Notes: generated from the sequence alone by a model not told the origin. Counted from the first letter of the stretch, positions 707-63,665 are shown. The stretch: DNA of 64,000 bases from a virus (IMGVR_UViG_3300028840_006907:288001-352000), one strand, 5' to 3'. A program made the numbers and translations.

Positions 707-1434
707 TTGATATTTTTATGACCACATGGTTTCGAGAAGAGTTCACACGTAAGTCTATTGAATTGATTCATGAAAGGACTAAACCTGGCACTTTCCAACT
801 TCATATTTTTGATAATAACAGTGGCCCGAAGATGCGCGAGTATTTAATAGGGCTTTTAAAAAATAAGAAAATAGCATCATTACATCTTGATTCTCGGAAT
901 ACCGGATGTCTTTATAATAAAGGTATTTTTCATATGATGGTGGAGGATTTTTGTAAATATTATATATGTACAGATAATGATGTCTATCCGCCTAAACTCT
1001 CTCCTGATTGGCTATCCCAGATGATTAAAATTATGGATGCTCATCCTGAACTAGCCTTTCTTGTCCCTCAGATACCCCCTCAGTGGCTTCAGGAACCTGA
1101 TCTTGCTAATTTAAAGGATGATATCGTTTATTGTAAAGCTGTTGGAAACACTTTTAAATTAGTTCGTAGAAAAGCGTTTCCTATATCAGAATTCCGTCCT
1201 GTACTAGGAGCATATGGTGATGATGCTCAGGTATGTGAACAGGTAAAATTACGAAATTATAAAGTAGCGTTTTGTCGGAATATTTTTTGTTATCATGCAG
1301 GACAATGTGAAAATTGGGGTTATAAAAAAGAAGAGATAGATTTGGATCCTCGTAAAGATGGTTACGGTAAACCGTTTAGCTATAAATTAATGAATGAAGA
1401 AACCTATGAACCTTTTCCGGAGAACAAAATATGA
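703..1434 (+). CDS. putative GT-A fold glycosyltransferase
   Basis: ORF with GTG 703 / ATG 718 start; HIFDNNSG and TDND acidic motifs reminiscent of GT2 nucleotide-sugar binding; weak. Confidence 0.4.
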   Translation: MIDIFMTTWFREEFTRKSIELIHERTKPGTFQLHIFDNNSGPKMREYLIGLLKNKKIASLHLDSRNTGCLYNKGIFHMMVEDFCKYYICTDNDVYPPKLSPDWLSQMIKIMDAHPELAFLVPQIPPQWLQEPDLANLKDDIVYCKAVGNTFKLVRRKAFPISEFRPVLGAYGDDAQVCEQVKLRNYKVAFCRNIFCYHAGQCENWGYKKEEIDLDPRKDGYGKPFSYKLMNEETYEPFPENKI

Positions 1435-1778
1435 AAAAGGCCACAGTAATAAGTCTGAGTGTAATAGTAGCTATTCTGGCAATAATTATTATAGTTACAA
1501 TAACTCATAACAGTGGAATAAATCTTACCAATCTTCATGTATCTGAAGATAAAAAAATTGAAGTAAATGAATGGGAACCTATAAAAACAGCCGGTGAAGA
1601 TGAACTAGTAAAAGTAGTTTGGGATCAGAAATATGGAGCTACGAAGACTGAGAATTGTAAAGTTGTATTTGAGAATAAGAAAAAGAAATTGTATAAATTA
1701 ATTGCCCCTGGTCTGGAAGTAGTAATAGAGCGTTCAAATATAAATGATATCTCATTTGAGATTATTAAAAAACAATAG
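1431..1778 (+). CDS. hypothetical membrane-anchored protein
   Basis: ATGA start/stop overlap with upstream gene; N-terminal hydrophobic helix (VISLSVIVAILAIIIIVTI). Confidence 0.5.
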   Translation: MKKATVISLSVIVAILAIIIIVTITHNSGINLTNLHVSEDKKIEVNEWEPIKTAGEDELVKVVWDQKYGATKTENCKVVFENKKKKLYKLIAPGLEVVIERSNINDISFEIIKKQ

Positions 1779-1844
1779 TGGTTCGAATAGATAGACCTAT
1801 ATATGGCACTATTCATTTAACTTTGATGTGTAAAGGAGATTGAA

Positions 1845-2657
1845 ATGAGTGAGTATATTCCTCAAATTTGTATTAGTGCTAGTGATCCTGTTAATTCGGT
1901 AAAAAGTCTACAGGGAAGTATTATAGGTATTCTATTTGAAAAAAAGGGTAAAGAAATTAAAAGTTCTATTTATGATAGACTCAAATCAATAGATAATAAA
2001 ATCAAAGAATATGAATCAGTATGTGGTAAGACTGAATCATTTGTGGAAGAGAAAGAGAAAGAACTAAAATCTTTAAAGGAATTTCATCAAACAAAAGAAG
2101 ACGAAAAAAAGGCTCTATTATTGCCTATTAAAAAGGAAATTGAAGAAAAAATAAAAAGAGCCAATGATATTACTTATGAATTTGATCTTAGTGTGTTTAA
2201 TGCAACAAAAGAGAAAGCGATTGAATTTGAAAAAGGTTTTGATGATATTAAAAATAAATTTGATGAGATAGATAATTTACTTATAAAAGATAGAGCTGTT
2301 ATTAAAGGTGCCAGAGGTATTCAGGGTTCAACAGGTCTTATGGGAGAAACGGGGATTCAGGGAGAACCTGTTCACGGTATAGGTTATGGAAGTGATGGTA
2401 ATATAGGAATAGGTACTGATAACCCTGATTCTATTCTTCATATGGGGACTGATCCAGGAGATAAAGCATATAGTAGATTAAATACACTTAATAATCTTTT
2501 AAAAAAATATATCAATAAACTGGAATCATTAAAAGAAGGTATTAATAGATTGAAAGAAGAAAAGAGACGTCTTCAATTAACCTATGATAATATTGATGAA
2601 TCCAGGGATTACAAATTAGATCTTAATATGTTGTCTGCTTTCGGTTTCGAAAAATAA
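1845..2657 (+). CDS. coiled-coil protein with short collagen-like Gly-X-Y tract and fibre-type GIGT motif
   Basis: RBS GGAGA upstream; seven consecutive GXY triplets (GARGIQGSTGLMGETGIQGEP) followed by GNIGIGTDNPDSILHMG, the same motif repeated in the giant fibre protein at 59979. Confidence 0.6.
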   Translation: MSEYIPQICISASDPVNSVKSLQGSIIGILFEKKGKEIKSSIYDRLKSIDNKIKEYESVCGKTESFVEEKEKELKSLKEFHQTKEDEKKALLLPIKKEIEEKIKRANDITYEFDLSVFNATKEKAIEFEKGFDDIKNKFDEIDNLLIKDRAVIKGARGIQGSTGLMGETGIQGEPVHGIGYGSDGNIGIGTDNPDSILHMGTDPGDKAYSRLNTLNNLLKKYINKLESLKEGINRLKEEKRRLQLTYDNIDESRDYKLDLNMLSAFGFEK

Positions 2658-24661: not shown

Positions 24662-25480
24662 ATGAACCTTCTTCAGAGAGTAAAAAAATATTGGGATGAT
24701 AGACCCTGTAATATACGCCATTCAAAGGAACCCGTTGGAACCAGAAATTATTTCAATGAGGTTGAATATAAAAAATATAAAGTTGAACCGCATATATCAG
24801 GTTTCGCTGATTTTAATAAATGGAAGGATAAAAAGGTCCTTGAGATAGGCTGTGGGCTGGGCACTGAGACTATAAATTTTGCTAGAGCTGGTGCTAGGGT
24901 TGTCGCTGTGGATATGTCTGAGAAATCTTTGGAGCTGGCTAAGAAACGAGCGGAAGTTTTTGGCTTGTCCGATAAGATTACATTTTATCAGGGAAATGCT
25001 GAAGAACTTGATAAATTTATCCCAGCTCAGAAATTTGATCTTATCTGGTCTTTTGGTGTTATTCATCATACCCCGAATCCTGAGAACGTTATTGAATGTA
25101 TCAAGAAGTACCTGTCTCCAAGCAGTGAATTACGAATGATGGTTTATAATAAATTTAGTTGGAAAGTATTCTGGATCCTTTTTAAGTACGGGAAGTTTAA
25201 GTTTTGGGATATTGATAAATTCATAGCTCAAAATTCAGAAGCTCAGACCGGGTGCCCAATCACCTACACTTATACAAATAAATCAGTTCAAAAATTACTA
25301 AAAGGGTTTGTAATCGATAATATTAAAATTGAGCATATTTTTCCTTATAAAATTCGTGAATATAAGGAGAATAAATTCAAATTTATCTGGTATTTTAGAT
25401 ACCTGCCCAAATGGTTTTTTCATTGGTTAGAAAAGAGAATCGGTTGGCATATGTGCATAATCGCCAGATGGAGAATTTAG
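24662..25480 (+). CDS. class I SAM-dependent methyltransferase
   Basis: VLEIGCGLGTETINFARAGARVVAVDMSE motif I/II; RBS AAGGA upstream. Confidence 0.8.
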   Translation: MNLLQRVKKYWDDRPCNIRHSKEPVGTRNYFNEVEYKKYKVEPHISGFADFNKWKDKKVLEIGCGLGTETINFARAGARVVAVDMSEKSLELAKKRAEVFGLSDKITFYQGNAEELDKFIPAQKFDLIWSFGVIHHTPNPENVIECIKKYLSPSSELRMMVYNKFSWKVFWILFKYGKFKFWDIDKFIAQNSEAQTGCPITYTYTNKSVQKLLKGFVIDNIKIEHIFPYKIREYKENKFKFIWYFRYLPKWFFHWLEKRIGWHMCIIARWRI

Positions 25481-25487
25481 GGGTGGC

Positions 25488-25565
25488 CAGCCCCGCGTAG
25501 GCGGGGAAAAGGGATACGATAAGAAAAAATCTGCTCTGTGGAACAGCCCCACGAAAGTGGGGAAT
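25488..25565 (-). repeat. two reverse-orientation copies of the CRISPR-like hairpin repeat (mini-array) in a convergent intergenic region
   Basis: Minus-strand reading gives ATTCCCCACTTTCGTGGGGCTG and TTTCCCCGCCTACGCGGGGCTG about 56 bp apart, matching the 51417-52310 unit consensus; bracketed by GGGTGGC/GCCACCC. Confidence 0.5.
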
Positions 25566-25631
25566 AATGCCACCCATTTTAAAAGATAGTATTGGGTGGT
25601 CTTTTAAATCAACTCTAAATTTTCCAGGAGT

Positions 25632-26096
25632 TTACAACCAGTCATCTTCTTTTCGGATAGATATTTTAGATAAAGTATCATTGTTAAGAAAAAGAGTTAC
25701 AATATAACGAACCCATTGATCATCATAATACCCAAATTCTTGTATTTCACTATTATCTGGAAATGAATCTACTATAACACTAGGTCCATAAACTTTCAGG
25801 ATTTTTCTTTTTGACATTCCAATCTTTAAATTTTGAAATTTACCTTCTTTAATTTCGATGTTATATAATCGGTGAGCAAAGATGTAACAAACCATATTCG
25901 GATAGTGCATATAAAGATCACTTTTAATAGTATCAATTTTTATAGGTTCTCCGAATTTTTCTATAACATCTTTAACAGTAAGGTCTTTTCGAAGATCGAA
26001 ATCAGGTCCGAATGGGAAGACACCGCAACTGTCGATTGAACGACTGAAGCATAAACTTACAAAAAGTATGATTGATATTAAAGTTTTCATATTCAC
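25632..26096 (-). CDS. secreted hypothetical protein
   Basis: N-terminal signal-peptide-like segment MNMKTLISIILFVSLCFS. Confidence 0.55.
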   Translation of the reverse strand: MNMKTLISIILFVSLCFSRSIDSCGVFPFGPDFDLRKDLTVKDVIEKFGEPIKIDTIKSDLYMHYPNMVCYIFAHRLYNIEIKEGKFQNLKIGMSKRKILKVYGPSVIVDSFPDNSEIQEFGYYDDQWVRYIVTLFLNNDTLSKISIRKEDDWL

Positions 26097-26195
26097 TCCT
26101 CTCTATATATTATACCAGTCAAATAGCCATTTTATACCAAAAAAAATTGTAATAATCTTTTAATTGCGATGTAACGTAATGAAAAGGGGTAAATT

Positions 26196-26963
26196 ATGAT
26201 AGATGCGAAAAGAGTCGTTTTTTCATACTTAAATTTAAAAGTTGCCAAAGATATGACACCAGAAGAGGCAAAGAAAATAGTGGATAAAATGCCTCCAGGA
26301 AGATTTGATAAAATTAAAAAATTGTTACAGCCTTTTGCTAGATTGTTTAAAAAATCTTTTAATGTAAGAGATGCTGGTGTCCTTGATACTTTAGGAAAAT
26401 TAAGTAGGGCTAAGGGAATTCCTCTTGTTGAATTGTTAGCAGTAGCTTCTATCATGTTTGGTGCTACTGTTCCGTCTTATGCTGACACTGCTAAAGAAAA
26501 AGCTCCAATAGTTCAAGTAAAAGAGAAAAGGCCCATTTCTGAGGTAAGAGCGGATCTAGAAAAAGTTTTTGAATTACCAAAAGGTTTAATGACTCTTGTA
26601 AAAGTTACTCCTCAATTAGCAATAAATTTAAAAGGTATAGATGGATTTGTAGAGACCGTGGGTAAAAATCTCGATAAGAGTATAACTCCTGAAGTTTCAG
26701 TATTGTTAAATCAAGTCCCAGATAATCAATGGCCTGAATTATTGTCTGGTTTAGTAATGCAGAAAATTCAAGAAGATGATAAAGTTGATAAGAAATTTAA
26801 AAAGTTTATTAAACACCATAAAACTAGCCCTCAAAATATGAAAAAAGAGATAGCAAAAGTTGTCTCACAAGAGAAATCTGGCATTCAAAAATTTGTTGAT
26901 AAAGGCATGGCTGAGAAGGGCCTAGCTAAAAAAGCCCATGAAAGAGGCTATTTAATTTCATAA
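26196..26963 (+). CDS. hypothetical protein
   Basis: RBS-like GGGG upstream; Lys-rich protein-like composition; preferred over overlapping antisense ORF 26132-26455. Confidence 0.5.
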   Translation: MIDAKRVVFSYLNLKVAKDMTPEEAKKIVDKMPPGRFDKIKKLLQPFARLFKKSFNVRDAGVLDTLGKLSRAKGIPLVELLAVASIMFGATVPSYADTAKEKAPIVQVKEKRPISEVRADLEKVFELPKGLMTLVKVTPQLAINLKGIDGFVETVGKNLDKSITPEVSVLLNQVPDNQWPELLSGLVMQKIQEDDKVDKKFKKFIKHHKTSPQNMKKEIAKVVSQEKSGIQKFVDKGMAEKGLAKKAHERGYLIS

Positions 26964-49949: not shown

Positions 49950-50816
49950 ATGGACAAAAAATATGAAGACCGAATGCTTGTCGTTTTTATCTTAGTGGGT
50001 CTAGTTGGTGGGTCACTGTTCTATTTCCTTAAAGATGGTCAGCCTCTCAGCTCAATTTTCATGACTTTCGCTCTATCAAGTATCCTCTATCGATTCCTGG
50101 GTGGAATTGGCCAAGGCACAAAATTCAGTGTCGGAGCATTTCGGTTAGGTGGTAGTGCAGCCTTCATGATCGGCTGTATCTTTTTTATCAACGAGTACAT
50201 TTTCCCAAAACCAGAAATCAACACCATTGTTTTAAGTACTCCCCAGGATCGATGGGTTCCTGTTAAATACCCTACAGGTGAGTATGTGAATGTTAAGGTA
50301 TTAACTCCTTCTGGAGATACTATTATTCATGGTATAAGTAGTGTAGAAATGGATGCTTTAAAAAAAAGGGAATACTGCATCACAAAAGAAGGGGAGAATT
50401 TTTATATCTGTTCTAATGCTGATTCAACGGTAATAGGCCATCTTAAGTTTGAAGATGTTTTTAAAGCTATTGAAAATGATATCCATATCACAGTCCAAGA
50501 TTTTCGGGTTTTTAAATTATACCCTAATCCTATAAATGACCCAAAAGATCAAGAAAAGAAATATAAAACTACTGATTCACTTGATGCTGTAAGTCAGACT
50601 TTTCCCATAGTAATCGAAGTCGATAAAACTAATATGAATATAAAGACAAAGGATGACAGTTTATTAACATCAGATGTACCTCGTAGTGAAAAATTCTATT
50701 TAGTTGATATTGAAAATGAGTATTTTATAGTTACAATATTACATGCTAATTTAGAAACATCAGAAAGTAAATGGTATTCTGAGTTTCTTGTTGGAAAAGT
50801 ATCTATTAATCGATAG
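49950..50816 (+). CDS. membrane protein
   Basis: Strong RBS AAGGAGG; three N-terminal hydrophobic helices. Confidence 0.55.
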   Translation: MDKKYEDRMLVVFILVGLVGGSLFYFLKDGQPLSSIFMTFALSSILYRFLGGIGQGTKFSVGAFRLGGSAAFMIGCIFFINEYIFPKPEINTIVLSTPQDRWVPVKYPTGEYVNVKVLTPSGDTIIHGISSVEMDALKKREYCITKEGENFYICSNADSTVIGHLKFEDVFKAIENDIHITVQDFRVFKLYPNPINDPKDQEKKYKTTDSLDAVSQTFPIVIEVDKTNMNIKTKDDSLLTSDVPRSEKFYLVDIENEYFIVTILHANLETSESKWYSEFLVGKVSINR

Positions 50817-50823
50817 AGGTAAT

Positions 50824-51252
50824 ATGAGCAATATGAAAATTGCAATAGCTTCTTATATGCGTTATACAGTTGTTTTAGCCAACTTGAAAGAGCATTTCAA
50901 AAGAGAACTCGATCTAGCTGGCCTATTTGATAAAGACTCCGATTATAATGGAATGATAGGTAACGCTGTTATGGACCTGTGTAAAGTCTTCTCTGATCAG
51001 GGCCATAGCGGGTTCTCCGCGAACTGGGTTCTGAAATTGTTCGATACTCTTGGTCACTATAAAACGTTGACTCCTATTACAGATAATCCGAAAGAGTGGA
51101 TGAAGGTTACAGATGGCCTCGGTAGAGATGAACCGGTCTGGCAGAGTAATCGAAATCCTTCCCTTTTTTCTAATAATGGTGGAAAGAGTTATTATGATGT
51201 AGACGATAAGAAGCGTAAGAAGATCCGCTCTAAAAAGTTTAAAAAGAAATAA
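50824..51252 (+). CDS. hypothetical protein with basic C-terminus
   Basis: ATG 50824 with AGAGG RBS (track start 50788 is an overlapping extension); KKRKKIRSKKFKKK tail. Confidence 0.45.
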   Translation: MSNMKIAIASYMRYTVVLANLKEHFKRELDLAGLFDKDSDYNGMIGNAVMDLCKVFSDQGHSGFSANWVLKLFDTLGHYKTLTPITDNPKEWMKVTDGLGRDEPVWQSNRNPSLFSNNGGKSYYDVDDKKRKKIRSKKFKKK

Positions 51253-51387: not shown

Positions 51388-51416
51388 TTGATCTTATGAT
51401 ATTTATGTTTTAGTAT
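51388..51416 (+). promoter_or_regulatory. candidate sigma70-like promoter / leader end upstream of the repeat array
   Basis: TTGATC - 17 nt - TAGTAT immediately before the first repeat, inside an AT-rich leader-like region 51253-51416. Confidence 0.2.
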
Positions 51417-52310
51417 ATTCCCCGCGTATGCGGGGCTGGGCCGATAAATCTTAAAATGGGTAAGATAAAAACCTGAATATTCCCCGCCCATGCGGGGCTG
51501 ATGCGTAATATAAATAATTTTTGATCAATTATAGGACATATTCCCCGCCCCTGCGGGGATTCCCCGAAAATATTGATGTTTTTTTGTATATATCAAAAAT
51601 ATTCCCCGCCCCTGCGGGGTTGATGCGAATACCGAACAAGTGCAGGGCCTGCAGATTATATATTCCCCGCGTATGCGGGGCTGGCGCGTAGGAGGTAAAA
51701 ATGAAATCGAAACATATTCCCCGCGTATGCGGGGCTGGTTCTAGAATTGAATGAAGCGCTGAATTTTCCCCGCCCATGCGGGGCTGAACCGACCGGGAAA
51801 TCATATCTATCCATAAATCTTGCATATTCCCCGCGTATGCGGGGCTGAACCGATACTAGATTGGGACATGTGTTTACCCAGAACATATTCCCCGCCCATG
51901 CGGGGCTGAACCGATTTCAAAAAACACGACCAGATAAAGATGAATATTCCCCGCGTATGCGGGGCTGTGTCAGGGTGAGAGGCTCGTGACGAATAATTTT
52001 TCATATTCCCCGACTCTTCGGGGTTGCCCCTCAGGAAGCTATTGAATTGCAAAAAACTGTATTCCCCGTCTATGCGGGGCTGTCTCTCCACATGCAAATG
52101 TAAGTAGTAAATACTGAATATTCCCCGGCATTCCGGGGCTGATCCCGTCTGGTAAAAACATAAAATGGTTCATCATAAGTATTCCCCGCCCATGCGAGGT
52201 TGGGCCATCCAGTACTGCTACTGCTAGGACCGTATTCCCCGCCCATGCGGGGCTGATCCTACGACTGGGACAGAAGTATTCATTGGTTTCACCCCGGCCT
52301 TTCCGGGGTC
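51417..52310 (+). CRISPR. degenerate type I-E-like CRISPR-style repeat array, 15-16 units, no cas genes in window
   Basis: Units start at 51417, 51479, 51540, 51601, 51662, 51716, 51765, 51826, 51887, 51946, 52005, 52061, 52120, 52181, 52234 (degenerate 52291); core ATTCCCCGC-N4-GCGGGGCTG; best units end CTGAACCGA; period mostly 59-62 bp; intervening sequences unique. Confidence 0.55.
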
Positions 52311-52409
52311 TAAAATAAGGATCTGAGATTTTTTTCTTAGATCCTTATATTTTTAATAATGTATTTATATTATTCCTTTAAATAATATCAAAATAAAAAA
52401 GGAAAAAGT

Positions 52410-53315
52410 ATGGCAATTGCGTTTATGAGAGGAAGCACCACTAATCAGAATGATTTGACCATAACGGTACGTGATACATCCAATAATTTGATCGACCCGT
52501 ATTCGTTGGAGTATGCTGTCTTCGATTACACTAGTGGCACTGAGGTCCTCATCGGATCCCCTGTTAATACTCCGCTCAAGTTGTCAACAGGAGAATATTG
52601 GGCGGAGGTTGTAATAGCAGCCGATGCCAATATAGGTCTCTGGCGCATCCGTTGGACAATTCAAGAAACAGCAGTCAGTCCTGTTTATCAATCGGTTCAG
52701 GAATTTCAAGTAGTAGGTTCCAGTGTTGTGACGAGTGTAACCGGAGATGCAAATTTTGATGCATTGGTCCATTCTTTACGAGTGATACTCCGAGACAACA
52801 ATCCGGACCGCAACTACAGATTTCGTCCCCCAGCTTCCGAGAAATTTATCCAAGGTCAGACCCAAGTCTTTGGATTCATTTGGGAAGATGAAGAGCTTGT
52901 AGAGTATATATACATGGCTATTGACGACTTCAATTCACGCCCCCCGACTACAGGTATAGATGTGGCCAATCTTTGGGGAACTGAGAGACGGTGGAGAACT
53001 ACAATTATTTTAAGAGCAGCAGCTTTTGCATGTTTCGCTATAACAATGAATTGGATCGCTGACGAATTTTCTTATTCAATTTCTGGAGTATCTCTTGACA
53101 TTGAGAAATCTTCGAAGTATCAATCTATGAAAGAGAATTATATCAATGAATATGACAAGCTTGTCGAGGCCAATAAGAGATCCATAAAAATTATAAAAGG
53201 TCTTAGGCAATATCGGTACGGGGTGGGCATCACGAGCGCCCTGGGACCCATGAACAGACCTGGAGTTCAAAGTAGAAGAAACCTTATAAGTCCAAGTTAT
53301 GGCCCTTATTTCTAA
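52410..53315 (+). CDS. hypothetical protein
   Basis: RBS AAGGAAAAAG; 301-aa ORF directly downstream of the array. Confidence 0.55.
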   Translation: MAIAFMRGSTTNQNDLTITVRDTSNNLIDPYSLEYAVFDYTSGTEVLIGSPVNTPLKLSTGEYWAEVVIAADANIGLWRIRWTIQETAVSPVYQSVQEFQVVGSSVVTSVTGDANFDALVHSLRVILRDNNPDRNYRFRPPASEKFIQGQTQVFGFIWEDEELVEYIYMAIDDFNSRPPTTGIDVANLWGTERRWRTTIILRAAAFACFAITMNWIADEFSYSISGVSLDIEKSSKYQSMKENYINEYDKLVEANKRSIKIIKGLRQYRYGVGITSALGPMNRPGVQSRRNLISPSYGPYF

Positions 53316-53408: not shown

Positions 53409-55859
53409 TTATATTTTATTATTTTTTCTAAGGAGAGCTATCTGACGTTTAATCCATCGAGGAGTTTCTTCAAGAGTTTCAGCCATTTGATTTCTTGTCA
53501 TCTTTCCACGATTATCTATTATGAATTGGAGCTTTTCTTCAGTCTTTCTATCTTTGGTACAACCAATAGGGTTTTTTGTAGATAATGTACCTTTTTTTTG
53601 TAAGAATTTTATTTGAGATTTAACCCATCGCTCTGTTTCATTGAGAGCTTTAGATAATTCTTTTTTAGTTTTATTTTTATAATTAGTGATTATATACTGC
53701 GTTTTTTCAGGGGTTCTTCTACATTTTGTTGAGAATTTAGAAATCTCTTTTAAATAGGTAAATTTCTCAGTGGGTTGTTTAATATTTATATCTTCAATAC
53801 ATTTTGAATTATATATTTCTTTTTCTCTTTTAGGATAAGGTTTAGTAACATAATTTTTTAATTTGTTAATTTTTTTCTTATCTCTTTTATTTTCACCTAT
53901 TAATAAGACATATTTATGTTTTCTTTCAGTAATAAATTTTTGAGCTTCAGATAATATATTTTTATTCCAATTATTCCATTGAACTTTAATTCCTTCTGGT
54001 ATGGTACTCATATTTTTAAAACCATTTTCTTTAAACCATTCCTTTTGAGAAATAATCCCTTGATTTTTACACCATTTTTTAAATGCTGATGTACGTTTTA
54101 GAGATTGAGCTGAAAAAGTCCTATTATTTTTAATGGAAGGATGTTTATATAAGTATGAACTTCCAAAGTTATTTCCTAGATAATCAAATCCACAAGCTTG
54201 GTAAATAGTCCCTATTTCAAGAGCTTTAGGATCAGCATAACCTATGAAAGCTCTTTTAGAAGTGTTATTAGCCATCCAATTACAAGCAAACCTTATAAGA
54301 CGGCTACCCAGGTTTTTCGGGGTCCATGAGGCAGTGGCACCTCTTTGAATTAAAGCTTCATATTTGGGAGTATCTTTACCTAGAATTTTGGAATATGCTG
54401 TGGGTTCATTTATAAATAATACTCCTGCGAGAATATTATTGTATCTGGCTGTGAAGCACCATTTTGGTATTACTCCAATTGTTCCTAACCATTCATATTT
54501 TTTTATAAATTGGACCATTTCATTATTAAATTTTTCTTCAGATAATGTAAAAGAAGTAGCTTTTAAAGAAGAGTGATTGAAATCGATATTTTTTTTATCT
54601 TCATCAATCCATTGAAGTTTCTTTTTATATTGGTGGCATATAAAAGTGGTCTTGTTTTTACTGTTAATTTTATTTTTTATTAAATCAATGATAATACCTT
54701 TTCGGATAGCTTCTTTTACATCATCAGACCAAAATCTAATCAAATTGGGTATATTTTTATTTTGGATTTCATCATTCTTAATATTTTCTTTTATTTTTAA
54801 TGCCCTTGGAGACGTATCATTTTCTCTTATTTCTTTACCATGCCAATAATTACCATCATATTGTACCCATAAGTTATAGCGAGGCATATAGAAATCAATT
54901 ACATGTTTAATAATTGGGTGCATAACTTGATGTTCTACAAAAGGATCAAATACAATAAGATAATTAAAAAAGTTATTTTCTTCATCTGAGGATGAGAAGG
55001 AATTATTTAGTTTAACTGTTTTATATGTTTTTTCTTTTATTTCAACATTCTGTTGGGGATTTTCAACGCCATATCTTTCAATATTAGTTTCAGTGATTTT
55101 TTTCTTAATCTCTGGAGATTGGAATACATTGTCAACCCCGTATCTTGATTGTACTGTTACTTTAACTTTTCTTTTTACTTCTTTAGATTGAGAGGGGTAT
55201 TCTACTCCTCGTTTTTCAATATTAGATTGACGGGATTTTTCTTTCATTGAGTTTAGTTGAGTAGAATATTCTACGCCATAACGTTTTTTAATAGTTTCGT
55301 TATTATGTTTAACTATATCTTCATTTATTTTATCTCGATTCCTTCTTAATCCTAGTTTAATAGCTCTTTCTCGGATGGCTTTCCAGGTCCTGTTTTCAAA
55401 GTAGAGCATAATAAATTCCATAGAATTCTTTTCATATACTTCTTTTAAAAGATCATCTTCTTTGGGTGACCAGAAGTCTTCCCTAGCAGGAGCGCTTTTA
55501 CCACCATCAATCATTTCTTGTTTAATTATTTCAGGATTTCTTTGAAGGTTTAATTTTTGAGCATTACTTCGGATGCTTTGCCATGATCGATTCTTGAATT
55601 TAGAAAGGATAAATTCTTTTGAATTATTTTCATATATATTTTTAAGAATATTTATCTCTTCGGTTGTCCAGGAATCTTTTCTTGGTCCTCTTTTTTTACG
55701 GTCTTCATTTATAAGGTCAGGATTACGGTGAAGATTTAGCTTACGTGCTTTTCTACAGATGGTTGTCCAAGATTTATTTAATTTGGAGATAATAAATTCT
55801 TTTGAATTATTTTTATATATTTCTTTTAATAAATTTTCTTCTTCTATTTTCCAACGCAT
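53409..55859 (-). CDS. large multidomain DNA-binding / nuclease-like protein
   Basis: Start at MRWKIEE (RBS AGAGG; track start 55916 is a non-ATG extension); three tandem ~60-aa HTH-like repeats (W..EE..L...Y...S.EFI..F.NR.W..IR..A.KL.L.RN), tandem RYGVEN repeats, Vsr/DUF559-like motif FYMPRYNLWVQYDGNYWHG, two C-terminal ET.RW.K.QI.LL.K repeats. Confidence 0.6.
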   Translation of the reverse strand: MRWKIEEENLLKEIYKNNSKEFIISKLNKSWTTICRKARKLNLHRNPDLINEDRKKRGPRKDSWTTEEINILKNIYENNSKEFILSKFKNRSWQSIRSNAQKLNLQRNPEIIKQEMIDGGKSAPAREDFWSPKEDDLLKEVYEKNSMEFIMLYFENRTWKAIRERAIKLGLRRNRDKINEDIVKHNNETIKKRYGVEYSTQLNSMKEKSRQSNIEKRGVEYPSQSKEVKRKVKVTVQSRYGVDNVFQSPEIKKKITETNIERYGVENPQQNVEIKEKTYKTVKLNNSFSSSDEENNFFNYLIVFDPFVEHQVMHPIIKHVIDFYMPRYNLWVQYDGNYWHGKEIRENDTSPRALKIKENIKNDEIQNKNIPNLIRFWSDDVKEAIRKGIIIDLIKNKINSKNKTTFICHQYKKKLQWIDEDKKNIDFNHSSLKATSFTLSEEKFNNEMVQFIKKYEWLGTIGVIPKWCFTARYNNILAGVLFINEPTAYSKILGKDTPKYEALIQRGATASWTPKNLGSRLIRFACNWMANNTSKRAFIGYADPKALEIGTIYQACGFDYLGNNFGSSYLYKHPSIKNNRTFSAQSLKRTSAFKKWCKNQGIISQKEWFKENGFKNMSTIPEGIKVQWNNWNKNILSEAQKFITERKHKYVLLIGENKRDKKKINKLKNYVTKPYPKREKEIYNSKCIEDINIKQPTEKFTYLKEISKFSTKCRRTPEKTQYIITNYKNKTKKELSKALNETERWVKSQIKFLQKKGTLSTKNPIGCTKDRKTEEKLQFIIDNRGKMTRNQMAETLEETPRWIKRQIALLRKNNKI

Positions 55860-55962
55860 ATGAGTACCTCTTTTTAGTATATTACTTATTATAACAGGTA
55901 TTAGAGTTATTGTCAATATTTCATTTAATAAATATGGAATTCATTAATTTATAGGGAAAAAG

Positions 55963-59978: not shown

Positions 59979-62900
59979 ATGGCTCAAGTAGAAAGAAAAT
60001 GGATCCAGGACCAAGCAATTTCCAATGAAAAAGTAGATCCCACTGATATTTATACCATTACAGGTTTAAGAGTTGATGAAACCAATGCCATTGGGAGAGT
60101 AGGAATAGGTTTATCTAGCCCTTTGGATGCTCTTCATATTCAACGAACTGATTCTTCTTCTGGAATGATGCTGGATCTTAGTGATGGTACAAATGGTAAA
60201 CTTTATAAGATATATTCAGGAGCTAATGGTTTACTGAATTTTACTGATGCTACAGATGGGGGCATATTCACCTATGGTGAATCAGGTTCGATAGGTCGAG
60301 TTGGTATCAATACCGCATCTATCCAAGATCACCTTCATGTAAGTTCCCCTTTAACAGATGCTGCGTTAAGACTTGATTTAGATGATGGACTCAATGGTCG
60401 AGCTTATCGTCTTGTCTCAGATACAGATGGAGCTTTTAGGATAATTGATGTTGATGCGGGTAATGTAAATAGACTTCAGATTGCTAATACAGGAACTTTA
60501 ACTGTCTCAGGTGATGCAACTTTTGATAGTAATTTTCAAATTAATGGTACTGTTACAGTTATTAATACTGAAATTGTCATTGCAGATCAATTAGAAATAA
60601 ATCAAACTGACAATCAGGCAGCATTGATAGTAAGTCAAGATACAGGTGGTGCTACAGCCACTGTAATGAGAATTGAAAATGCTGGCACAGGCCATGCTTT
60701 AACCGTAGATTCTGGTAATGTAGGTATTGGTACTTTAACTCCGGCTGCTCCTCTTCATGTTCAAGGTGATATAATTACTGCCAATGGGTATAATATCGGA
60801 GACACCACTCATAGAATTGGTACTCTTTGGATGGCTTCTACTGTAGATTATTTGACTGACCTTAATTTTAGTTCAGGTGGAACAAATGTTACTTTTGCAA
60901 CCGGTGGAAATGTCGGGATAGGTTCTGGTACTCCTACCCAGGCCCTGGATGTGGTTGGAACTATAGAAAATACAGGTGATATCATAACAACTGGTTCTTA
61001 TCCTTCCGGTTTAATAAGAGGAGCTTATTTAACGATAACTACTGGAAATTCGACTTTCCAAGGAAGAGTGGGAATTGGTGTTACAAGTCCGTCTTATCCT
61101 CTTCATGTTGGTGGAGACATTTATTCCAATACAGGTAATATTGTAGCCACTGCTGGAACTGTGACAGGTGGATCTGGTTTAATAGCTACTACAGGTGGTG
61201 TTATAGCCTCTGCTGGAAATATAACAGCGACCTTGGGTGATCTCATCGCTTCTGCGGGTTCTGTAACTGCTAATACAAATGTAACTGCTACGAATGGAAA
61301 TATAGTTGCTTCTAATGGAAATATTTCTGCTACGAATGGTACAGTAACAGGAGGCACCGGTTTAATAGCTACCACAGGGGGTGTGACCGCTACGAATGGA
61401 AATATAGTTGCTTCTAATGGAAATATTTCTGCTACGAATGGTACAGTAACAGGAGGCACCGGTTTAATAGCTACCACAGGGGGTGTGACCGCTTTAGCTG
61501 GTAATATCTCTGCTTCGGCTGGTTCTGTAACTGCTAATACTAATATAACAGCCACGAATGGTAATATTGTTGCTTCTAATGGAAATATTTCTGCTACAAA
61601 TGGTACGGTAACAGGAGGCACCGGTTTAATAGCGACTACAGGTGGTGTAACCGCTACGGCTGGAAATATCACTGCTTCAAATGGTAGTTTTGTCGCTCCA
61701 AATGGAATTGTAAGTGTAGGTTTTGGCGTTATAGCAGCAGGGGGTGATATATTTGCCCAAACGGGTAAAGTAGGAATTTCAACCAGTTCTATTGCAGGAG
61801 GTTATGTATTACATGTTCAAGGAAACGCTTATTGTTCAGGTCAAGTAGATACAAATACTTTGGATGTAGGTAGTGGCAGTTTTACTGTAAGTGCAATTGG
61901 TGCAACAAATATCGGACCAGGCTGGTTAACTTTCGGTCAACATATGTCTGGTGGAGGACAGATTGGATCTGCTTCTACCGTAAATATTGTTTCAACCAGT
62001 GGTGCAACTATGTCAGGAGGTTCAGGCGCTGTCTCAATTACTACTAATAACAGTGGTACGCCAAGTGCGATTAATGTGACCTCTGGAAATAACACCGGAT
62101 CAGGAGTTGGTGGAGCACTCAATCTGAATGCAGGTGATTCGGGAGGAGCTGGTACAGGTGGTGCAGTAACTATTACTGGAGGAACGGCTTCAGGTGGTGG
62201 ATCTACAGGAGGAGACATTTTGCTGCTTCCTGGAAGTGCTGTCTCAAATGGGCGCGTTGAGGTAGGCACAGGTGCCTCTTCGAAAAATTTATGGGTTTCA
62301 GGTAGTGTAACTATAGAAGGAGCTAATTCTGCTTTTGCTCTTTCGATTAATAATACGAATTATGTAGGAGCTTATTGTGCAATAGCAGGAGCATCAACGG
62401 TAGCTGGCTGGTTTGAAAATAGTGGTTCAGATTCAACATCTATGTTTGTGCAACAATTAAATACTGGTAAAGGGCTTTTCGCTACTGGATTAGGATTAAA
62501 TTCTTTTGCAGGATTTTTCCAAAGTACGGGCTATACAACTCTTAGGTCAGAAGTGAGTGGTACTGGAGGTGGTGATTATGCTGTACATGCAATATGTACA
62601 AATGCTGGATCGAGTGCCACTTCAGCAGCAGTTTTTGCTCAAAATTGGGGAGGTGGAAAAGCTATTCAGGCAACCGCAGGAACTGGAACTACTATTCAAG
62701 GGTCAAACACTAATGGTACTGCTATTTATGGGTCTCAAGCAGGAACCTCTGGTAGAGCAGGACGTTTTAGGTGTAATGCTGGATCTTATGCATACAATGC
62801 TGTTGAGGTAGAAGTGACTTCAGGTACAGGAGCTTCAAAAGGGATCTTAGTTAATTATACCGGTTCTGGTAATGCTATAGAAGTAAACGGTGGTAGTGGC

Positions 62901-63665
62901 TATGGTATTGAAGCATACCAAAGTGCAGGAACAGTTTATCATGGGACTAATTCAGGAACTACAGGTAGAGCTGCTTTATTCGAAACTTCTAATACCAGTT
63001 TTAATGGTACTATAGTTGAAATAAGTAGTAATACAACATCACTGAATAATAATTGTTTAGTTTGCAATCATTCAGGTAGTGGTACAGGTCTTACTGTTAA
63101 CTCCAATGCAGCGGGTGCTAGTTTTGGTATTAACAGCTTTATGCCGGGTGTCTCTGGAACTGGAAGAGCTATTAATGGCTACTGTGTTTCAGCATCAGGA
63201 TTTGCCGGTTATTTTACTGGGAATGTACATATTGCGGGTACTCTTTCTAAAACTGCGGGTGGTTTTAAAATTGATCATCCAATTGAACCTGAGACAAAGA
63301 ATTTAGTTCATAGTTTTGTTGAAAGCCCTGAGATGAGGAATGTCTATTATGGACGGGCTGTGACTCATGATGGGACAGCATCTATAGGTCTTCCGGATTG
63401 GTGGGTTACATTAAATGGGTCTAATAAGGAAGAGTATAATTATAGTTTAACTACTATTGGTAAATACAGCAGATTATTTATTAGTAAAGAAATAGAGAAC
63501 AATCAATTTGAAGTCTCTTCATTGGATGGAGACTGTACTTTTTCCTGGACTATCTCAGCCATTCGCCATGATACTTATGCTGAGAGCAACAGAATACAAG
63601 TAGAAAAGAACAAAACACAAGAAGAAATAGATGATTATAAAAAAGAGCATGGCATTTCTGTCTAA
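59979..63665 (+). CDS. giant Gly/Thr/Ser-rich fibre protein (tail-fibre or surface-fibre like) with internal tandem repeats
   Basis: 1228 aa; RBS AAAGGAG; at least six G.VGIGT..P...LHV.G motifs, 34-aa tandem repeats, C-terminal FKIDHP...VHSFVESPE...YYG domain. Confidence 0.8.
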   Translation: MAQVERKWIQDQAISNEKVDPTDIYTITGLRVDETNAIGRVGIGLSSPLDALHIQRTDSSSGMMLDLSDGTNGKLYKIYSGANGLLNFTDATDGGIFTYGESGSIGRVGINTASIQDHLHVSSPLTDAALRLDLDDGLNGRAYRLVSDTDGAFRIIDVDAGNVNRLQIANTGTLTVSGDATFDSNFQINGTVTVINTEIVIADQLEINQTDNQAALIVSQDTGGATATVMRIENAGTGHALTVDSGNVGIGTLTPAAPLHVQGDIITANGYNIGDTTHRIGTLWMASTVDYLTDLNFSSGGTNVTFATGGNVGIGSGTPTQALDVVGTIENTGDIITTGSYPSGLIRGAYLTITTGNSTFQGRVGIGVTSPSYPLHVGGDIYSNTGNIVATAGTVTGGSGLIATTGGVIASAGNITATLGDLIASAGSVTANTNVTATNGNIVASNGNISATNGTVTGGTGLIATTGGVTATNGNIVASNGNISATNGTVTGGTGLIATTGGVTALAGNISASAGSVTANTNITATNGNIVASNGNISATNGTVTGGTGLIATTGGVTATAGNITASNGSFVAPNGIVSVGFGVIAAGGDIFAQTGKVGISTSSIAGGYVLHVQGNAYCSGQVDTNTLDVGSGSFTVSAIGATNIGPGWLTFGQHMSGGGQIGSASTVNIVSTSGATMSGGSGAVSITTNNSGTPSAINVTSGNNTGSGVGGALNLNAGDSGGAGTGGAVTITGGTASGGGSTGGDILLLPGSAVSNGRVEVGTGASSKNLWVSGSVTIEGANSAFALSINNTNYVGAYCAIAGASTVAGWFENSGSDSTSMFVQQLNTGKGLFATGLGLNSFAGFFQSTGYTTLRSEVSGTGGGDYAVHAICTNAGSSATSAAVFAQNWGGGKAIQATAGTGTTIQGSNTNGTAIYGSQAGTSGRAGRFRCNAGSYAYNAVEVEVTSGTGASKGILVNYTGSGNAIEVNGGSGYGIEAYQSAGTVYHGTNSGTTGRAALFETSNTSFNGTIVEISSNTTSLNNNCLVCNHSGSGTGLTVNSNAAGASFGINSFMPGVSGTGRAINGYCVSASGFAGYFTGNVHIAGTLSKTAGGFKIDHPIEPETKNLVHSFVESPEMRNVYYGRAVTHDGTASIGLPDWWVTLNGSNKEEYNYSLTTIGKYSRLFISKEIENNQFEVSSLDGDCTFSWTISAIRHDTYAESNRIQVEKNKTQEEIDDYKKEHGISV
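61288..61491 (+). repeat. two perfect 102-bp in-frame tandem repeats inside the fibre gene (third diverged copy near 61552-61653)
   Basis: Identical DNA units encoding TATNGNIVASNGNISATNGTVTGGTGLIATTGGV. Confidence 0.85.

Follow-up and report, generated by a model that had tools for sequence, protein, structure and literature searches.

A probable cas-less mini-CRISPR array of type I-E ancestry, with spacers resembling the genes beside it in related phages

Introduction

What is a pair of GC-rich hairpins doing between two convergent genes of a viral genome? The question is raised by positions 25481-25575 of IMGVR_UViG_3300028840_006907:288001-352000, a stretch of 64,000 nucleotides (nt) of viral DNA (hereafter, the window). 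Here a sequence-only reading had seen two minus-strand copies of a repeat hairpin that also builds a large array elsewhere in the window, and had considered a virus-encoded CRISPR (clusters of regularly interspaced short palindromic repeats) mini-array, an RNA anti-CRISPR and a bidirectional terminator as its possible identities. Our analysis indicates that the two hairpins and the sequence between them probably constitute a virus-borne, cas-less mini-CRISPR array of type I-E ancestry, which would act against co-infecting relatives by way of the Cas6e, Cascade and Cas3 proteins presumably furnished by the host.

Virus-borne mini-arrays have been described as intergenic elements with one or two spacers between host-type repeats and no adjacent cas genes (Faure et al., 2019, as cited in PMC6858448; PMC6858448; PMC11656645). 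Between related viruses the site is shared but the spacers differ, and these spacers match related viruses rather than the carrier, whose orthologous site has point mutations (PMC6858448; PMC11656645). Their targets are neighboring genes or sites near the array, a proximity that Medvedeva et al. (2019) call unexplained (PMC6858448).

Two type I-E-like repeat units flank a short spacer

The element lies between a plus-strand gene for a 272-residue class I S-adenosylmethionine (SAM)-dependent methyltransferase (24662-25480; Pfam Methyltransf_31, 3e-23) and a minus-strand gene for a 152-residue protein with no assigned function, which is upstream of the element on the same strand. The convergent arrangement of these neighbours had been recognized earlier, and the plus-strand gene stands as then described; the minus-strand gene is better read as 25632-26090, from an ATG start, than as extending to 26096. 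Two repeat hairpins occupy 25483-25567 on the minus strand with a start-to-start distance of 56 nt (the strings TTCCCCACTTTCGTGGGGCTG, 25564-25544, and TTCCCCGCCTACGCGGGGCTG, 25508-25488), and the earlier description of a minus-strand pair about 56 bp apart was borne out by a motif scan of the window. Unit A (25539-25567, minus strand; TTATTCCCCACTTTCGTGGGGCTGTTCCA) contains the hairpin CCCCAC/GTGGGG at 25547-25562, which folds as a 6-bp stem with a tetraloop at -10.5 kcal/mol, and ends in the 3' handle CUGUUCCA. Unit B (25483-25511, minus strand; CTTTTCCCCGCCTACGCGGGGCTGGCCAC) contains the hairpin CCCCGC/GCGGGG at 25491-25506, with a 6-bp stem and a 4-nt loop at -11.7 kcal/mol; its stem is that of the array consensus and its loop differs. 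In unit A the fifth stem pair is A-T, where the array consensus has G-C; this compensatory change agrees with the stem compensation noted earlier. The inter-unit sequence had been given as 34 nt, which holds between the two strings quoted above; however, in the I-E register with repeats of 29 nt the spacer is 27 nt long (25512-25538, minus strand; CAGAGCAGATTTTTTCTTATCGTATCC), and its in-frame reading is E-Q-I-F-S-Y-R-I.

The motif TTCCCC-N5-10-GGGGCTG occurs 13 times in the window against 0.00 expected, twice at the mini-array and 11 times in the plus-strand array. With up to three mismatches allowed there are 17 matches, and the looser CCCC-N4-12-GGGG likewise has 17 (1.4 expected), all of them confined to these same two loci. 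Hence, within these 64 kb, the hairpin is not a dispersed element of the repetitive extragenic palindromic (REP) type, and the REP-like spread that the sequence-only reading had raised against itself is not seen.

Bacterial genomes contain arrays with a 61-nt period whose repeat has the core TTCCCCGC-N4-GCGGGGCTG. One such array (L098; L numbers designate the sequences compared) lies directly downstream of a cse1-cse2-cas7e-cas5-cas6e-cas1-cas2 cluster, in which Pfam recovers Cas7e (CT1975, 7e-98) and Cas6e (PF08798, 4e-40) along with Cse1, Cse2, Cas5, Cas1 and Cas2. Both units of the mini-array have the GC-rich 6-bp stem and 4-nt loop of the Cas6e substrate type, as type I-E repeats do. Moreover, they share with the array repeats TATT/TTTT lying 5' of the stem and CTG lying 3' of it; because this resemblance extends beyond the stem, the units are homologous to the array repeats and not mere convergent GC hairpins. 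The core of unit A is of the form TTCCCCAC....GTGGGGCTGTTCC, that of the array of the form TTCCCCGC....GCGGGGCTGAACCG. The 8-nt 3' handle is CUGUUCCA in unit A, CUGGCCAC in unit B and AUAUUCCG in the first unit of a relative discussed below (L125), the array form being CUGAACCG and the form in E. coli AUAAACCG. The unit A variant, (A/C)TGTTCC, also occurs in a genuine 61-nt-period array on the viral contig L220. A scan of 185,579 genomes found true arrays with ATTCCCCGC-N4-GCGGGGCTG only in high-GC bacteria; beside the one in Corynebacterium mendelii (L090), no cas genes were found on the side examined.

The same scan also returned single matches in low-GC sequences (L066, L093, L064, L076, L067 and L088), which we rejected as unrelated structured or non-coding sequences. 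Two of these (L066, 4690-4885; L093, 3475-3670; both from Bacteroidota MAG096) are near-identical copies of a non-coding element of about 205 nt that lacks an Rfam match and terminates with CCAGCCCCGCCTTAGCGGGGAATAATGCGGG; its likeness to the flank of unit A (GGGGAATAATGC) is probably due to chance. A different single unit, GTGTTCCCCACTTACGTGGGGCTGTTCCA, is found at 2936-2965 of L206 (IMG/VR 3300014204_013734, 381 kb), between genes for tRNA-Arg and tRNA-Gly on an unrelated huge-phage contig of 52% GC. It agrees with unit A at 25 of 26 core positions and drew no tRNA call from ARAGORN; going by this likeness, it may be a solitary repeat unit that mimics the same I-E repeat type.

The same slot holds different spacers in related phages

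Contigs of relatives were gathered through homologues of the 152-residue protein and of the methyltransferase. Two further lineages have a comparable element in the slot between these genes. In L120/L121, whose methyltransferase is 75% identical, it shares intergenic slot and strand with the window element, and comprises TATTTTCCCCTGCCTTAGCGGGGATGACCC, 24 nt and GATTTCCCCCGTTTTTCACGGGGCTGTTCC, with the units 54 nt apart. In L125, with a methyltransferase 74% identical, the slot has ACTCCTGCAATAAGCGGGAATATTCCG, 32 nt and TTTTTCCCGCGTTAGCGGGACTGTCCC, with the units 62 nt apart. The L120/L121 element is on the strand of the 152-residue protein gene; the L125 contig ends before that gene, and the strand is taken from the methyltransferase. 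Thus, a single slot contains three different spacers in the window, L120/L121 and L125, with period and spacer length of 56 and 27 nt, 54 and 24 nt, and 62 and 32 nt, respectively, of which only the last is canonical for type I-E.

Other relatives lack the element. The syntenic L116, L122 and L123 have gaps of just 18-21 nt without a hairpin, L117, L118/L119 and L124 have other sequence in the slot, and no hairpin was found in the methyltransferase relatives L009-L056 from IMG/VR and JGI metagenomes, which are at most 72% identical and which provided candidate sites for the spacer comparisons below. Spacer-like gene fragments in the slots of L124 and L118 did not exceed background. In a neighbor-joining tree of the methyltransferases the three array-bearing lineages and L124 form one clade; this suggests a single origin of the mini-array, followed by vertical retention and one replacement, in L124. 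Hence, the element was probably passed down from an ancestor shared by at least three related phage lineages. Across 22 units, covariation is seen at stem pair 1 (C-G to T-A in both L125 units), pair 5 (G-C to A-T in unit A) and pair 6 (C-G to A-T, G-C or T-A in units 11, 13 and 16 of the array and unit 2 of L120), while the loops vary freely. Compensatory substitutions have preserved the hairpins.

L124 is the closest relative lacking the array, and its slot (1757-1994, minus strand) has a makeup of its own. A promoter-like TTGACT-N15-TATAAT is present there, together with non-coding sequence of about 190 nt and a terminator-like hairpin followed by T7. No repeat or spacer-like signal was found in this interval, which may encode a different small RNA in the place of the mini-array.

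Spacers partially match the flanking gene families of relatives

For the window spacer, the best non-self matches are to methyltransferase homologues, in every case on the sense strand and at a single homologous site: 21 of 27 positions in L118/L119/L015, and 20 of 27 in L029/L030, L035/L024 and L116. A score of 21 was reached by none of 2000 shuffled spacers over 33 kb of methyltransferase genes, and by about 1% of shuffled spacers over 1.75 Mb in total (P ~0.01). Read in frame, the spacer gives EQIFSYRI, to be compared with the family motif (E/D)HIF(P/S)Y(R/K)I, within which EHIFSY(K/R) variants exist. The carrier's own allele (25329-25355) matches at 19 of 27 positions, against 20-21 in the relatives, with mismatches at guide positions 1, 2 and 8. 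At the position of the protospacer-adjacent motif (PAM), L118/L119/L015 have AAG, L123 has ATG and the carrier's gene has AAA.

The L120 spacer points to the same gene family, which is thus the source or target family of both spacers. It matches the window methyltransferase (25214-25237) at 20 of 24 positions, against 15 of 24 for L120's own allele, and its four mismatches to the window all fall at third codon positions and are synonymous. The two sequences share the translation DKFIAQNS, a peptide that, of the 120 listed homologues, only the window protein has. At exactly the site of its own spacer, the L120 methyltransferase (1432-2250, minus strand) reads NELIATYS where the family has D(K/E)(L/F)(I/V)A(Q/R)(H/N)S; this departure could represent protein-level escape from self-targeting or from reciprocal targeting.

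The L125 spacer, in turn, is the antisense of the FGYYDxxWVRY site in the gene for the 152-residue protein, the family on the other side of the slot. It matches L116 at 28 of 32 positions and L117 and L123 at 27, compared with 24 of 32 in the window (25705-25736) and a background of 21 of 32. At the PAM position, ATG is present in five distinct relatives (L116, L117, L118, L120 and L123; six loci in all), and ATA in the window, L122 and L124 by way of a synonymous tyrosine codon change, TAC to TAT. A canonical I-E PAM (AAG or ATG) is therefore often found at the protospacers of relatives, whereas the carrier has AAA or ATA. Judged by these matches, the inter-unit sequences are real spacers, each a diverged derivative of a conserved protein-coding stretch in one of the two flanking gene families of related phages. 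A peptide-level scan of spacers against the six-frame translation of the window was discarded as too noisy, except for the L125 spacer.

The large cas-less array shows the same neighbor-targeting

The array proper, also without cas genes, comprises 16 I-E-type units at 51415-52316 on the plus strand (consensus ATATTCCCCGCGTATGCGGGGCTGAACCG), mostly with a 61-nt period and with 15 spacers of 20-33 nt. The last of these, spacer 15 (52261-52286), encodes TTGTEVFI and matches homologues of the adjacent gene for a 301-residue protein (52410-53315) at codons 41-49 (gene offset 120), with 19-20 of 26 positions identical in L169, L130, L184, L147, L138 and L136. A score of 19 was reached by none of about 22,000 in-frame control sites, and the window's own allele scores 18 of 26 (TSGTEVLI). 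On this evidence spacer 15 derives from homologues of the adjacent gene, in the same pattern of neighbor-targeting as that seen at the mini-array. It is the sole array spacer with an assigned origin; a 14-nt exact match of spacer 1 to homologues of the 152-residue protein gene was rejected as it fails as a homologous-site match.

The array itself is heterogeneous. Its repeats are non-identical, with the loops GTAT, CCAT, CCCT, CTCT, CTAT and CATT and with variation also at stem pair 6 and in the 8-nt handle, and its spacers measure, in order, 33, 32, 32, 32, 25, 20, 32, 32, 30, 30, 27, 30, 32, 24 and 26 nt. It ends with a degenerate unit and a terminator-like hairpin. Spacer 5 (51689-51713), TAGGAGGTAAAAATGAAATCGAAAC, consists of a perfect Shine-Dalgarno sequence and an ATG. 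It either stems from a gene start or begins a 17-codon open reading frame (ORF) through repeat 6, and none of the gene starts found in the window matches it. The array begins 163 nt past a homologue of Tad3, an inhibitor of type I Thoeris (50788-51252, plus strand; Pfam PF25185, 5e-33), and together they may form an anti-defense or conflict locus.

Folding and putative transcription signals

The inverted repeat noted earlier around the pair of hairpins is exact, its arms being GGGTGGC at 25481-25487 and GCCACCC at 25569-25575; read on the minus strand, the latter is a conserved GGGTGG motif just upstream of unit A. The minimum free energy fold of the minus-strand RNA (-42.7 kcal/mol; z = -4.7 against shuffles) includes the helix between these arms. 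In the proposal of one structured RNA of about 95 nt, the closing helix is real for the window but poorly conserved, being weakly echoed in L120 (GGGAUGG/CUGUUCC, with three G-U pairs) and absent in L125. The motif AAAaTGGG(g)TGG precedes the first unit in the window, L120 and L125 alike. GCCACCC also has an alternative partner, TGGGTGG at 25593-25599. The two pairings are mutually exclusive (25570-25599, plus strand): the one with GGGTGGC encloses both repeat hairpins and the one with TGGGTGG forms a hairpin just downstream of the gene for the 152-residue protein.

A terminator-like hairpin, CTGTTCCACAGAGCAG followed by ATTTTTTCTT (25521-25546, minus strand), is made up of the unit A handle and the first 18 nt of the spacer. 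This CTGTTC/GAGCAG hairpin with its T6 is the sole terminator-like site in 25000-26200, but is not significant by itself as 0.7 such sites are expected in shuffled sequence; its T-run coincides with the protospacer codons for Ile-Phe. A U-run is missing after both repeat hairpins, whichever strand is read. Upstream, past the stop codon of the gene for the 152-residue protein, we noted a promoter-like TTGATT-N15-TACTAT (25586-25612, minus strand), which was read by eye, with a 15-nt spacing, and is unscored. We infer it only as a candidate for an own promoter of the mini-array. By reading and without a computed alignment, it appears to correspond to the TTGACT-N15-TATAAT in the same slot of L124.

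Interpretation of the element

The overall pattern is that published for virus-borne mini-arrays, and going by its sequence the element is of this known kind. As in those elements, there is one spacer between two units, the slot is shared among relatives, the spacers have been turned over, the targets are neighbors and no cas gene turned up in the 47 ORFs of the window that were scanned. These features, together with the I-E family units, the gene-derived spacer and the orthologous two-unit elements, support the virus-encoded mini-array proposed by the sequence-only reading. The differences are that the carrier is probably a phage of 390-470 kb, that the repeats are of type I-E, that the two repeats are non-identical, that all but one of the three spacers fall short of canonical length, that no perfect target is known, and that another cas-less array of this repeat family, with 15 spacers, is present in the genome. 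The I-E mini-arrays of IMG/VR (L225, L226 and L228; L003/L004/L006/L007) are likewise composed of a repeat, a spacer and a second, non-identical repeat ending in GGGGCTG. A terminator-like hairpin with a T-run follows two of three of these (L225 and L226, not L228), and L226 has, by reading, a promoter-like site. They differ in having spacers of the canonical 32-nt class (about 32-35 nt; 44 nt in L228) and in lying on contigs of 45-69% GC that are unrelated to this phage.

For this mini-array, the most likely role is that of a weapon aimed at rival relatives. We show the relationships among sequences; the steps of transcription, processing and interference are inferred from established type I-E biology. 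The minus strand would be transcribed either by read-through from the gene for the 152-residue protein or from the promoter-like site. Cas6e, presumably the host's, would then cut at the 3' base of each stem, yielding a CRISPR RNA (crRNA) with the handle CUGUUCCA, the 27-nt guide and the hairpin of unit B. This crRNA would direct host Cascade and Cas3 at co-infecting relatives with a sensitive allele, resulting in heterotypic superinfection exclusion. With adjacent genes as targets, the weapon would stay linked to its own escape alleles, and such linkage of guide and escape allele would explain why neighbors are the targets.

Several observations weigh against this interpretation. No protospacer of 90% or higher identity was found for the window spacer, the best being 78%; exact protospacer scans of IMG/VR with the window and L120 spacers returned no match, nor did a blastn search of all the spacers, concatenated, against INPHARED at E-values up to 1. 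The set of sequences in which matches were found is enriched for both flanking gene families, having been fetched as such, an enrichment for which the shuffle tests act as the control. The window spacer is 27 rather than 32 nt long, the handles CUGUUCCA and CUGGCCAC differ from the CUGAACCG of the array, and two guide codons (Q for H and S for P) depart from the commonest gene motif. Furthermore, the terminator-like hairpin and U6 within the guide mean that transcripts may stop before unit B. Pfam scans of 47 window ORFs found no Cas family, and the genomes found with the repeat are all of high GC as against the 32% of the phage. Hence, the current activity of the window copy is uncertain, and it may have been weakened or retired.

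Of the other explanations, one is an RNA anti-CRISPR decoy, whose hairpins would soak up the Cas6e and Cascade subunits of a host I-E system and for which the inter-unit sequence would be irrelevant or vestigial. Candidates of this class (Racr) consist of a lone repeat unit with no spacer, and I-E examples have been validated experimentally, RacrIE1 and RacrIE2 being working instances (PMC10651486). The degenerate handles and short spacer would suit such a role, as would the terminator-like site directly after unit A, which would yield a one-hairpin small RNA, and the presence of other anti-defense genes in the phage, namely the Tad3 gene beside the large array. The element is indeed, like a Racr, a phage-encoded mimic of a CRISPR repeat outside a cas locus, but it is not solitary: a second unit lies 56 nt away, and SRUFinder drops a candidate if another repeat-like unit occurs within 100 bp, such pairs counting as arrays or mini-arrays if identity cut-offs are met (PMC10651486). 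Moreover, its spacer is gene-derived in three lineages and was replaced at least twice, and this replacement, together with the coding-gene origin, implies selection on spacer content that a decoy does not need. We therefore do not favor the RNA anti-CRISPR suggested earlier and regard it as quite unlikely. Decay offers another account of the same short spacer, non-canonical handles and two non-consensus guide codons: a once-working mini-array might persist merely as stable hairpins between convergent transcription units. The lack of a perfect target, the terminator-like hairpin inside the guide, the replacement of the element in L124 and its absence from other relatives are all in keeping with such a relic. 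However, both stems are intact and compensated across lineages with the flanking protein 74-78% identical, unit spacing is conserved at 54-62 nt, and the spacers were turned over rather than merely decayed, making this very unlikely for the element.

A third account draws on the viral Cracr or crlRNA elements, whose pseudo-spacer is shortened (to 21-24 nt in I-E) and lies between degenerate repeats; such elements can be stacked into array-like units (bioRxiv 10.1101/2024.10.29.618823). A partially matching pseudo-spacer would then let Cascade bind without cleavage by Cas3, repressing a promoter or gene that belongs to a host CRISPR locus, to a competitor or to the phage. The degenerate repeats and shortened spacers are shared with this class (27 and 24 nt in two of the three lineages, along with the 20-30-nt spacers in the large array), and all the known matches are partial. 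Cracr pseudo-spacers, though, match host cas or toxin promoters, by a PAM-proximal stretch of at least 9 bp, whereas the matches of the spacers here lie within the coding regions of structural or metabolic phage genes beside the array. The carrier's own allele is mismatched in the seed, at the guide positions given above, so that self-regulation is unlikely, and the canonical 32 nt of the L125 spacer and the ATG PAMs of its targets look like interference; we consider a regulatory crRNA-like RNA highly unlikely. Least credible, and very nearly dismissed by us, are hairpins without any relation to CRISPR, serving as a plain terminator or RNA-stability element of convergent genes or as a REP-like dispersed sequence. 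Their position between convergent genes, the GC-rich stems in a genome of 32% GC and the one terminator-like site on the minus strand fit well enough, but the missing U-runs and the syntenic relatives with 18-21-nt gaps and no hairpin argue against the primary role as a bidirectional terminator proposed earlier. The restriction of the motif to two loci, the likeness to the array beyond the stem and the gene-derived sequence between the hairpins are equally contrary to it.

The mini-array might also, although this is rather unlikely, act selfishly, as a CRISPR-guided cassette of the homing or poison-antidote type. The guide would hit the flanking-gene alleles of co-infecting relatives, and Cas3 would inflict damage beside an empty or differently armed slot. 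Repair from the array-bearing genome would then co-convert the array and its linked immune alleles, as in the intron-less homing of phage endonuclease genes. Homing would explain why three out of three mini-array spacers and the gene-proximal spacer of the large array target, out of a genome of about 390 kb, the gene directly beside them. With the element described here, virus-borne mini-CRISPR arrays would extend to a lineage of very large phages and to type I-E repeats. The three lineages with one slot, three spacers and both flanking genes as targets form an unusually clean natural series, joined by a second, long cas-less array in the same genome with the same neighbor-targeting. Such a series makes the proximity of targets testable as linkage between weapon and immunity alleles versus homing-like spread. 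The short spacers and non-identical repeats, for their part, bear on the boundary between interference-competent mini-arrays, regulatory crRNA-like RNAs and RNA decoys.

Genome context

The carrier, contig Ga0180437_10000019 of JGI metagenome 3300017963, measures 388,651 bp at a GC content of about 32% and is a probable huge phage, as indicated by the Tad3 homologue, a Mom-like protein and the 301-residue protein, whose relatives occur on more than 100 viral contigs of IMG/VR, many of them of 100-450 kb. The proteins flanking the mini-array are encoded on seven contigs of up to 469,617 bp, the carrier being one of them. A megablast search of 11.5 kb of the window against INPHARED phages gave no match, no tRNAs were found in the window, and Rfam searches at the gathering threshold (whole window) and at an E-value threshold (both loci) returned nothing meaningful.

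About 35 kb of the window (4336-39759) are taken up by two opposed operons encoding glycosyltransferases, SAM methyltransferases, sulfotransferases, a radical-SAM enzyme and thiamine pyrophosphate-dependent enzyme fragments, a repertoire for glycan modification that is unusually large for a phage. The mini-array is situated exactly at the point where these operons converge. The Mom-like protein (53409-55916, minus strand; 835 residues) combines DUF7487 and a Mom-like DNA-modification domain with matches to HNH or homing-endonuclease-like PHROGs and with helix-turn-helix motifs. Further on, an ORF of 1228 codons (59979-63665), which has no Pfam match, contains nested tandem repeats at 61134-61735 with periods of 102, 81 and 21 nt and a seven-residue unit approximating A-T-N-G-N-I; its product is possibly a fiber or surface protein.

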